Shown here: positions 48,401 to 51,400 of the stretch, in pieces | Numbering within the stretch: the first letter of the stretch is position 1 | Layout of the letters: each line of letters starts with the position of its first letter | DNA from: Escherichia coli O157:H7 | Lineage (GTDB): Bacteria > Pseudomonadota > Gammaproteobacteria > Enterobacterales > Enterobacteriaceae | DNA: 64,000 nucleotides | Reading direction: 5' to 3' (one strand) | NCBI RefSeq assembly: GCF_013167455.1 | Contig: NZ_CP038328.1 | Position numbers: made by a program

Positions 48401-51400
48401 GGATCAATCCACAGGAGTAATTATGACAAAACGTCGTAAGAAATACCAGGAAAAAGAAGAGATTCGACACCCTGATTCACCTGAGGGATTAGTGGTAGCC
48501 GCAGCAAATAACAGGGCGTTCGCAGAGCGCCTTGTTGGTGTTTACAGACTAGCCAAAGCAGGAGTGAAACATGGGCGTCGTTAAGTTAGCTGATTACAGG
48601 CCTCAACTGGAGGTCGTGGAGCATCGCGTGGCAGATACCGAAGATGGTTTCATGCGCGTTGCTAACGAGATTACCGACAGTCTGCTGATGGCTGATTTAA
48701 CCGTCCGGCAGTTGAAGGTGATGCTCGCTATCATGCGCAAGACATACGGATTCAATAAGCCGATGGATCGACTCACAAACACGCAGATAGCAGCCATGAC
48801 AGGTATTCATCACACTCATGTTTGCGCTGCCAAGCGCCAGCTTATTGAGCGTAAATTCCTCATTGCTGATGGCGTGAAAATCGGAGTGAACAAGGTGGTT
48901 TCTCAGTGGATTAGCCAGGACAGCTTAACATTAGCTAAAACAGCTAATAAAACATTAGCCAAGTCGGCTAATGGGTATAAGCCAAGTCAGCTAAACACAA
49001 AAGACAATATACAAAAGACAATAAATACAAATACCCCCTTACCCCCTAACGGGGATGGCGATGGGCAGGTTAAACCTGAACGTCGCAAGGCAGAACGAAT
49101 CGACTACGAATCCTTCCTGAACGCCTACAACACCGAAGTCGGTGACAGACTTCCACACGCTGTTGCGGTCAACGAGAAACGAAAACGCCGCCTGAAGAAA
49201 ATTATCCCGCAACTGAAAACGCCAAACGTGGACGGTTTCAGAGCGTATGTCAGGGCGTTTGTGCATCAGGCCAAGCCGTTTTACTTCGGAGACAACGACA
49301 CGGGCTGGACGGCAGATTTTGATTACCTGCTGAGGGAAGATTCGTTAACGGGAGTTCGGGAAGGGAAGTTTGCAGACAGGGGGATTGCATGAGACAGGAT
49401 ATCGAAGCTAGCGTTATCGGTGGCCTGCTGATTGGTGGATTAACTCCAACCGCCAGTGACGTTCTGGCAACGCTGGAGCCGGAAGCGTTTTCAATTCCGC
49501 TCTACCGGAAAGCCTTCGAGGTTATTCGCAAGCAGGCGAGAAACAGAAACCTAATCGATGCGCTGATGGTTGCCGAGGCGTGCGGAGAGGAGCATTTCAC
49601 GTCAATCCTGATGACCAGCAAAAACTGCCCGAGTGCCGCAAACCTGAAGGGATATGCCGGAATGGTCGCGGATAACTATCACCGCCGTCTGGTGCTGGAA
49701 ATCATGGATGAAATGCGTGAACCAATCCAAAGCGGAACCATCGACGCATCGAGTCAGGCGATGGATGAACTTGTAAAGCGTCTTTCAGCCATCAGAAAGC
49801 CCCGTGACGAGGTTAAACCTGTACGGTTAGGGGAAATCATCACTGACTACACTGACACGCTTGACAGGCGTCTGAGGAACGGAGAAGAGTCAGATACCCT
49901 GAAGACCGGAATCGAAGAGCTTGACGCTATCACTGGAGGGATGAACGCAGAAGACCTGGTGATTATCGCCGCTCGTCCTGGTATGGGGAAAACCGAACTG
50001 GCGCTGAAGATTGCCGAAGGTGTGGCAAGCCGCGTTATTCCTGGTTCTGACGTCCGGCGCGGGGTATTGATTTTCTCAATGGAAATGAGCGCATTGCAGA
50101 TTGCAGAGCGAAGCATTGCCAACGCCGGGAGGATGTCGGTTAGCGTACTGCGAAATCCTGCATCGATGGATGACGAGGGCTGGGCACGTGTTGCTAACGG
50201 CATGAGTCAGCTTGCAGATTTGGATGTATGGGTAGTCGATGCTTCGCGGTTATCGGTCGAAGAAATACGCTCAATCGCAGAACGGCATAAGCAGGAAAAT
50301 CCAAACCTGTCACTCATCATGGCGGATTATCTTGGCCTGATTGAGAAGCCGAAAGCAGACCGCAACGACCTCGCAATTGCTCACATCTCCGGAAGCCTGA
50401 AGGCGATGGCGAAAGACCTGAAAACACCGGTTATCTCCCTGAGTCAGCTTTCGCGCGATGTTGAGAAGCGACCAAACAAACGCCCGACAAACGCAGATTT
50501 GCGTGATTCAGGAAGCATTGAACAGGACGCAGACTCAATCATCATGCTCTATCGGGAAGCGGTATATGATGAGAACAGTAGCGCCGCGCCATTTGCTGAA
50601 ATCATCGTGACGAAAAACCGTTTTGGCTCGCTTGGTACAGTTTACCAGCGGTTCTGTAACGGACACTTTGTTGCATGTGACCAGGATGAAGCCAGACAGA
50701 TTTGCACAGCATCAAATGCACCTGCTGCGCGTGGCAGACGATATGCACAAGGGGCTGACGTATGACCATCTACATCACTGAGTTAATAACAGGCCTGCTG
50801 GTAATCGCAGGCCTTTTTATTTGGGGGAGAGGGAAGTGAACGATAGCTACCGACAGTTTGAAAACTGGTGGTCAAAAGACAAAAGCCAGTTCACGGGAGA
50901 CGATGAATTAAAAGAGTTTGCCTGGGTGATATGGCAGGCATCGCGCTCTGCTATTGAACTGGATATCGACTGGCCCGAATCGAATGACGACCTTTGGAAA
51001 GATGGTGAAGAAGGTGCTTATGCGATGGGTTATGAGGATGGGCGTGACAAAACGGTAATTGCAGTAATGAAAGCCATCAGGGCCGCAGGAATCAAAGAAA
51101 AGAATTTCGATTAAGCAAATATCACTTCAATAAATCGCTTTTAAGGCATCACAATCGCTCTGTGGTGAGGTAAGCACGTGCAAGGTATACCGATAAGCAG
51201 CGAGAATGAAAAATGCGTCAGAATGCGTTTGAGGAGGTTTTAAGAAATGAGTACGATAGCTGAGCTTGTCAGGGCTAATTTTCGTGAAGAGTTGGTGCGT
51301 TGGTATCGGTATCGTTCATCGTCCAGTTTGCCGCTTGATGAGTTGTATGAGCATTCACCTGCCGCACGACGCTATCCGCGTGACCGTGTTCTTCGACGGT

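Follow-up and report, generated by a model that had tools for sequence, protein, structure and literature searches.

A cluster of four palindromic iterons with an adjoining AT-rich tract, located within an O-like initiator gene, was found in the chromosome of Escherichia coli O157:H7 and is very probably the vegetative (theta-type) replication origin of the lambdoid Stx2c prophage integrated beside sbcB. The window, meaning the whole stretch of 64,000 nucleotides that was analysed, runs from wca/galF via the his leader to sbcB, and the prophage within it carries stx2c. The anatomy of the element, its homology to known origins, its conservation at the DNA level and its covariation with the initiator protein were all directly observed.

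A repeat search of the window identified a four-copy repeat family at 48910-48927, 48930-48947, 48954-48971 and 48977-48994, with start-to-start spacings of 20/24/23 bp. The periodicity on which the sequence-only reading depended was therefore recovered by formal repeat analysis, though the array was missed by Tandem Repeats Finder, owing to the uneven spacing and the divergence of the copies; the only repeats that this program called were those of 14 nt in the AT tract and one of 8 nt, TACCCCCT. The individual iterons, to which no strand is assigned, were as follows.

48911 to 48927: iteron 1, TTAGCCAGGACAGCTTA, with two mismatches to the consensus and an imperfect dyad
48931 to 48947: iteron 2, TTAGCTAAAACAGCTAA, a perfect 6-5-6 dyad
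48955 to 48971: iteron 3, TTAGCCAAGTCGGCTAA, a perfect 6-5-6 dyad
48978 to 48994: iteron 4, TAAGCCAAGTCAGCTAA, with one mismatch to the consensus and imperfect arms

Each copy is composed of a 5-bp spacer flanked by 6-bp inverted arms. Three to four palindromic 17-bp iterons had been proposed for this position from the sequence alone; the palindromic repeats stand, and their number is exactly four. The arms of the consensus proposed at the same time were likewise correct, but two central Ns rather than one are required to give 17 bp, so that the consensus reads TTAGCYAA-NN-CRGCTAA. When the plus strand of the window was scanned with this pattern at up to two mismatches, four matches were obtained (0, 0, 1 and 2 mismatches), all within the array. 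Extending the scan to both strands and three mismatches added two minus-strand sites in the window (8568 and 27297), which is approximately the chance level. Under a first-order Markov null, 300 simulations gave a mean of 0.23 matches and a maximum of one per 100 bp, a test with some circularity, since the iterons themselves had supplied the pattern.

The genes and the RNA associated with the array were identified as follows.

48571 to 49392, plus strand: O-like replication initiator gene encoding 273 aa, with a match to Pfam Phage_rep_O at aa 19-113 (E = 5.8e-33)
49389 to 50765, plus strand: phage DnaB-type replicative helicase gene (eru2B), the presumed partner of the O C-terminal domain, with matches to Pfam DnaB_C (E = 1e-77) and the DnaB N-terminal domain
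48333 to 48412, minus strand: homologue of the lambda oop RNA, identified by a terminator scan (intrinsic terminator at 48366-48339) and by alignment with the oop regions of lambda and P22

The O-like gene corresponds to HK97 O/gp54, to eru2A of the Stx phages and to RefSeq WP_000539354.1. Over its N-terminal 134 aa the product shares 42% identity with lambda O, and its overall identity to P22 gp18 is 51%, with the latter alignment extending over the C-terminal domain. The helicase is 90% identical to P22 gp12 at the amino acid level. Upstream of O, genes for a CI-like repressor, a Cro-like HTH protein and CII are followed by the oop homologue in the order found in lambda; the oop homologue, which belongs to the lambdoid control and replication region, lies antisense to the 3' end of cII.

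Within the O gene, the iterons occupy nt 341-424, corresponding to aa 114-142 and thus lying past the end of the Phage_rep_O domain (aa 113), in the segment coding for the linker between the N- and C-terminal domains. In the AlphaFold model of O (mean pLDDT 64), confidence was about 78 to 85 over most of aa 41-110; a helix-turn-helix (HTH) and a beta-hairpin were predicted within aa 45-106, with residues 81-93 forming the second HTH helix and the hairpin after it a wing, and the iteron-encoded residues fell in a low-confidence linker at aa 117-156 (pLDDT <50). A Foldseek search with this model gave weak matches, all to winged-helix regulators (best E = 9e-3), which is consistent with a wHTH domain in O. 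Searching the PDB with the O protein sequence returned no matching solved structure. Within the origin, Rfam gave no RNA family at gathering thresholds, and a promoter scan provided nothing useful near it.

Directly 3' of iteron 4, two further elements were observed.

48995 to 49033, plus strand: AT-rich, A-skewed tract and presumed DNA-unwinding element, opening with the conserved junction ACACAAAAGA and containing two 14-nt repeats
49034 to 49054, plus strand: C5-TTA-C5-TAAC-G4 element bounding the AT tract, which can form a small hairpin as folded single-stranded DNA and encodes the Pro-rich linker PLPPNG

An AT-rich tract following the iterons had been expected from the sequence alone, and it was borne out both in position and in composition: its 39 nt are 79% A+T (26 A, 5 T, 6 C and 2 G), with the repeats ACAAAAGACAATAW at 48997-49010 and 49011-49024. 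It was the least stable 30- to 40-bp stretch within the O gene and ranked in the bottom 1 to 1.5% of the whole window for stability. The junction after iteron 4 is ACACAAAAGACA in the window, lambda and P22 alike, and the AT-tract junction is common to lambda and 10 other phages. Versions of the C-rich element were present in P22, HK97, RCIP0114, phiES15, Yen21.09, Ehr49, GZ7 and PSTNGR2lys; any role of the DNA in this element is inseparable from the coding constraint. Together, the AT tract and the C-rich element (56 bp) match P22 at 98% identity, against only 50 to 56% in either flank; this conserved segment may serve as a recombination joint for reassorting initiator specificity and helicase partner. 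A palindrome at 49058-49086 was considered as the counterpart of the right-hand inverted repeat of lambda but was left unassigned, as it sits in coding sequence that the window has in common with P22 and HK97 only.

Comparison with characterised origins placed the element within the lambda type. The annotated lambda iterons start at 39034, 39054, 39078 and 39101, giving the same 20/24/23 spacing as in the window, and the 6-5-6 geometry recurs in their core, TCCCTC-AAAAC-GAGGGA. In both cases the origin is placed centrally in the initiator gene, where the linker is encoded, with cII and oop upstream, and the A-rich tract begins identically. The two differ in the sequence of the arms (TCCCTC/GAGGGA in lambda and TTAGCY/RGCTAA in the window), in the C-terminal domains of their O proteins, which are unrelated, in the downstream gene, which encodes the lambda-P loader in lambda but a DnaB-type helicase in the window, and to the right of the AT tract, where lambda has a TCGTCAGAGAATTC...CTCTGAC inverted repeat in place of the C5/G4 element. 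P22 gene 18 contains four repeats of TTTACC-NNATC-GGTAAA, again spaced 20/24/23, beneath an annotated rep_origin at 32840-32984 (BK000583); these four repeats of approximately 20 bp have been described as unlike those of lambda (phage L genome paper, bioRxiv 10.1101/2020.10.05.325894). P22 and the window share the same O/helicase gene pair, yet their N-terminal domains and iterons are just 50 to 54% identical at the nucleotide level, and the P22 arms are TTTACC/GGTAAA. The regions of HK97 gp54 and of the Eru2-type Stx phages (TW14359, Nil2, 1717 and 2851) carry essentially the same element as the window.

The element thus has the features of a lambda-type origin, namely an intragenic position in the linker, four phased 17-bp dyads, an adjacent strand-asymmetric AT region, a Phage_rep_O initiator encoded in cis, cII and oop upstream and a helicase gene downstream. 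Assignment to the P22/HK97 subgroup follows from the gp12-like DnaB helicase and from the homology of the O C-terminal domain to that of gp18. The proposal that ori-lambda architecture is reproduced inside the initiator gene was upheld by the Phage_rep_O gene, the 20/24/23 phasing and the junction shared with lambda and P22, and the suggested comparison with other lambdoid phages revealed common geometry and spacing with different arm sequences.

Iteron plasmids of the pSC101, R6K, RK2 and P1 class also have repeated initiator sites beside an AT-rich unwinding element, with the initiator encoded in cis. Their iterons, however, are direct and non-palindromic, are bound by Rep monomers, lie outside the rep gene and are usually accompanied by DnaA boxes. 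The window sites are dyads inside a gene with no DnaA box nearby, and a scan for the DnaA-box consensus found none within the prophage early region. The Rep/iteron plasmid-origin class was rejected on these grounds.

Palindromes of this kind might instead serve a different regulator as operators or terminate antisense transcription as hairpins. Lambdoid operators are also 17-bp dyads, iterons 2 and 3 fold into hairpins when single stranded (z = -4.4), and the terminator scan flagged iteron 3 together with the following T-run on the minus strand. This terminator-like call is a by-product, the palindrome adjoining an A-run. The operator reading was rejected, the motif occurring neither in the cI-cro operator region nor elsewhere in the window. 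More generally, the position, phasing and junction of the palindromes are those of the O-binding iterons of lambda, and the motif covaries with the O protein, leaving either reading with a negligible probability.

To assess constraint on the DNA, the element was compared with those of four distant relatives, Klebsiella RCIP0114, Cronobacter phiES15, Providencia PSTCR7lys and Yersinia 21.09, whose O N-terminal domains are 58 to 63% identical to the window protein. The TTAGCYAA-NN-CRGCTAA consensus was kept in all four, and the 20/24/23 spacing was kept in RCIP0114, PSTCR7lys and Yersinia 21.09, with phiES15 having five copies. In a distant-mode blastn search, the genomes of these relatives aligned to the window over the origin alone. 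At positions where the amino acid was identical, the codon was also identical for 65 of 82 iteron codons (79%) compared with 100 of 219 codons in the N-terminal domain (46%; Fisher p = 1.3e-7), and third-position identity was 74% and 38%, respectively. On the evidence of these alignments, the iteron DNA is itself under selection.

These data bear on an alternative, that the repeats reflect nothing more than a repeated linker peptide and that the DNA has no function. The iterons are indeed translated, giving the repeated peptide TLAKTAN-K-TLAKSAN in the open reading frame, and the segment is a predicted disordered linker; a part of the repetition might in principle serve the protein. A peptide repeat, however, does not require the dyad symmetry found in each DNA copy, and the synonymous sites are far more conserved than those of the folded N-terminal domain. 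Moreover, the linker peptide differs entirely among phages according to arm type (LAKSAN, TFTKSVK, LPESGK and, in lambda, SPKTRDK), while the geometry and spacing of the DNA remain constant. It is thus the peptide that follows the DNA and not the DNA that follows the peptide, and a purely peptide-level origin of the repeats was considered very unlikely.

The proposal that the iteron sequence defines the replicon specificity was examined across 12 phages sharing the layout of iterons, an (A/C)CACAAAAGA junction and an A-rich tract. Each class of iteron arm was found to go with a distinct sequence at residues 78-85 of O, as listed here.

Arms TTAGCY, O residues 78-85 GIHHTH(V/I)C: window/HK97, RCIP0114, phiES15, PSTCR7lys and Yen21.09
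Arms TTAGC..TGCTAA, O residues 78-85 KH(L/H)THCS: Ehr49 and SEN34
Arms TTTACC, O residues 78-85 TKCSTAK: P22 and PSTNGR2lys
Arms TTACCY, O residues 78-85 GILPHKCS: GZ7 and Turner
Arms TCCCTC, O residues 78-85 KLPVKRCN: lambda

In the AlphaFold model, these residues form the turn and the start of the predicted recognition helix, where P22 has TKCSTAK and the window IHHTHVC. The N-terminal domain and the iterons were found to travel as a unit that is joined to unrelated C-terminal domains, and the genes downstream of this unit include some for DnaB-type helicases and one whose product carries the annotation replication protein P; in the TTACCY arm class, which is related, the downstream partner is a DnaC-type loader. 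The covariation of the arms with the O segment and the joint movement of the N-terminal domain and the iterons lend support to a specificity role for the iteron sequence. HK97 has previously been listed as a separate predicted replication specificity (epsilon34 paper, PMC2629481).

By homology with lambda and P22, we infer that O binding, unwinding, helicase recruitment and firing would proceed at this site in the following way. Loss of the repressor would allow rightward early transcription and expression of the O-like initiator, whose N-terminal winged-helix domain would bind, as dimers, to the four dyad iterons within its own coding sequence. The phased O complexes, approximately two helical turns apart, would then wrap and stress the DNA, and the adjacent A-rich, low-stability tract at 48995-49033 would open. 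The C-terminal domain of O would, in the manner of P22, recruit the DnaB-type helicase encoded by the phage itself and not a complex of lambda P and host DnaB; initiation would be independent of a lambda-P-type loader, and host primase and polymerase would then begin replication. Specificity would be set by the TTAGCY/RGCTAA arms together with the O segment GIHHTHVC, a combination of the HK97 type that is distinct from those of lambda (TCCCTC) and P22 (TTTACC). A literature search returned no footprint, mini-replicon or origin mapping for the TTAGCY iteron type.

The O gene is 100% identical at the nucleotide level to those of the Stx phages Nil2, 1717, 2851 and SH2026Stx1, all deposited as phage genomes, and approximately 99% identical to those of HK97/HK446-type coliphages and several P22-like Salmonella phages; over 48880-49060, identity to HK97 was 98.9%. 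The origin segment was present in 441 of 5,426 complete E. coli genomes. Across 12,258 bp, positions 46966-59223 of the window match, with 100% identity, the TW14359 segment on which the definition of the Eru2 replication region is based.

Decayed lambdoid prophages are numerous in O157:H7 genomes, and the origin might accordingly be of the right kind but silent, the prophage being a defective, non-replicating relic. In TW14359, a close relative, IS1203 interrupts the exo-like gene of this prophage, which would fit with such decay. The window, however, is free of this insertion. Its O and helicase open reading frames are intact, the genes for the repressor, cro, cII, Q and stx2c are all present, and identity of the O gene to the deposited phage genomes is complete. 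A silent relic was therefore judged unlikely.

The replication module in question has been published as Eru2, a non-lambdoid type without O and P, in which eru2A was called a protein of unknown function. Two Stx-phage papers class the module as Eru2 without any mention of iterons or of an origin, and among the sequenced Stx phage genomes covered by one survey this type was the most frequent (57/120). The present results contradict this description. Eru2 is probably a canonical lambda/P22-type replicon with its origin inside eru2A, constituting a distinct, HK97-type specificity class (GIHHTHVC plus TTAGCY arms). Origin annotation was absent from the three records inspected (Nil2, HK97 and TW14359), and a literature search, in which the HK97 genome paper (PMID 10860721) was not covered, found no paper giving the iteron sequences of HK97-type or Stx2c phages. 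The element itself counts as already known, because its kind is textbook material and its exact sequence occurs in long-known phages; origins embedded in O genes are textbook, and nothing here is conceptually new.

What the analysis provides is the exact origin and the specificity determinants of the replicon of an O157:H7 Stx2c phage. The type of replication module has been linked to the level of Stx2 production (PMC4645166) and to lysogen stability (PMC8044961), and because of the tie to Stx2 production, a functional reading of the common Eru2 module should be of some practical use. If Eru2 is a lambda/P22-type replicon, lambda/P22 replication biology and the existing assays for O-iteron binding would be applicable to it. 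As a more speculative extension, the window origin could, as has been suggested for lambda, set off OLD- or Lamassu-type defence; HK97 is OLD sensitive, and the possibility arises from the hairpins that the iterons can form when melted, together with the near identity of the HK97 origin. Finally, the 12-phage comparison constitutes a small natural experiment, which could help in deciphering site recognition by O proteins.

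The AT-rich tract (48995-49033) that follows the four iterons forms part of a 56-bp island (window 48995-49050) that is shared with P22 (L002 32924-32979) at 98% identity, whereas both flanks fall to 50-56%. The island lies exactly at the boundary where relatives change to unrelated O C-terminal domains, and it may act both as an unwinding element and as a recombination joint for module exchange. The features on either side of the iterons and tract were as follows.

48333-48412, minus strand: lambda oop RNA homologue, with an intrinsic terminator (stem 48366-48339)
49034-49054: C5...C5...G4-5 element, a potential small hairpin, 3' of the AT tract

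The oop homologue was found to lie opposite the 3' end of cII in antisense orientation, with its start just upstream of a small ORF at 48423-48584. The C-rich element was observed after the AT tract in most phages with a non-lambda-P-like partner, including the compared phage sequences L005, L006, L008, L009, L010, and L013. In its place, lambda, SEN34, and Turner have in common TCGTC(A/C)GAGAATTCTG..CTCTGAC. Since the C-rich element also encodes a Pro-rich linker, any role as DNA cannot be told apart from one as protein.

When window 48905-49060 was folded as single-stranded DNA, iterons 2 and 3 formed hairpins (MFE -20.9 kcal/mol, z = -4.4). Hairpins of this type in ori-lambda iterons were proposed in a 2026 preprint to activate the OLD defence nuclease, and HK97 was among the OLD-sensitive phages in the same work. 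The HK97 ori region is 98.9% identical to the origin in the window. To tie OLD activation to this origin is speculation.

The following features were also located within the prophage.

43963-44021: Rfam match to the lambda cIII thermoregulator
52852-53037: adjacent Rfam matches to isrK and C4 antisense RNA
57647-57887: three tRNA genes, upstream of stx2A
57983-58942: stx2A
58954-59223: stx2B
59298-59509: Rfam match to STnc100, just downstream of stx2B

Separately, a perfect 107-bp direct repeat (copies at 53414-53520 and 54344-54450, 930 bp apart) flanks a segment containing an Rfam sRNA-Xcc1 match (53982-54065). In the record of the Stx phage Nil2, the ant gene at this repeat locus is described as disrupted by a putative bacterial retrotransposon.

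Strain TW14359 matched window 29726-64000 at 99.87% identity apart from an IS1203 insertion of ∼1.3 kb, which splits its exo-like (YqaJ) gene and is missing from the window at 42318-42320. The window therefore derives from a strain closely related to TW14359 but distinct from it. The TW14359 “Eru2” reference region was identical to window 46966-59223 (100% across 12,258 bp). This region has been termed non-lambdoid or described as coding for a protein whose function is unknown (Llarena et al. 2021; 2022 follow-up). The product of its helicase gene, eru2B, shares 90% identity with P22 gp12. Judged by sequence, and contrary to those descriptions, the initiator gene eru2A is a homologue of HK97 O and P22 gp18, with a lambda-type origin within it.
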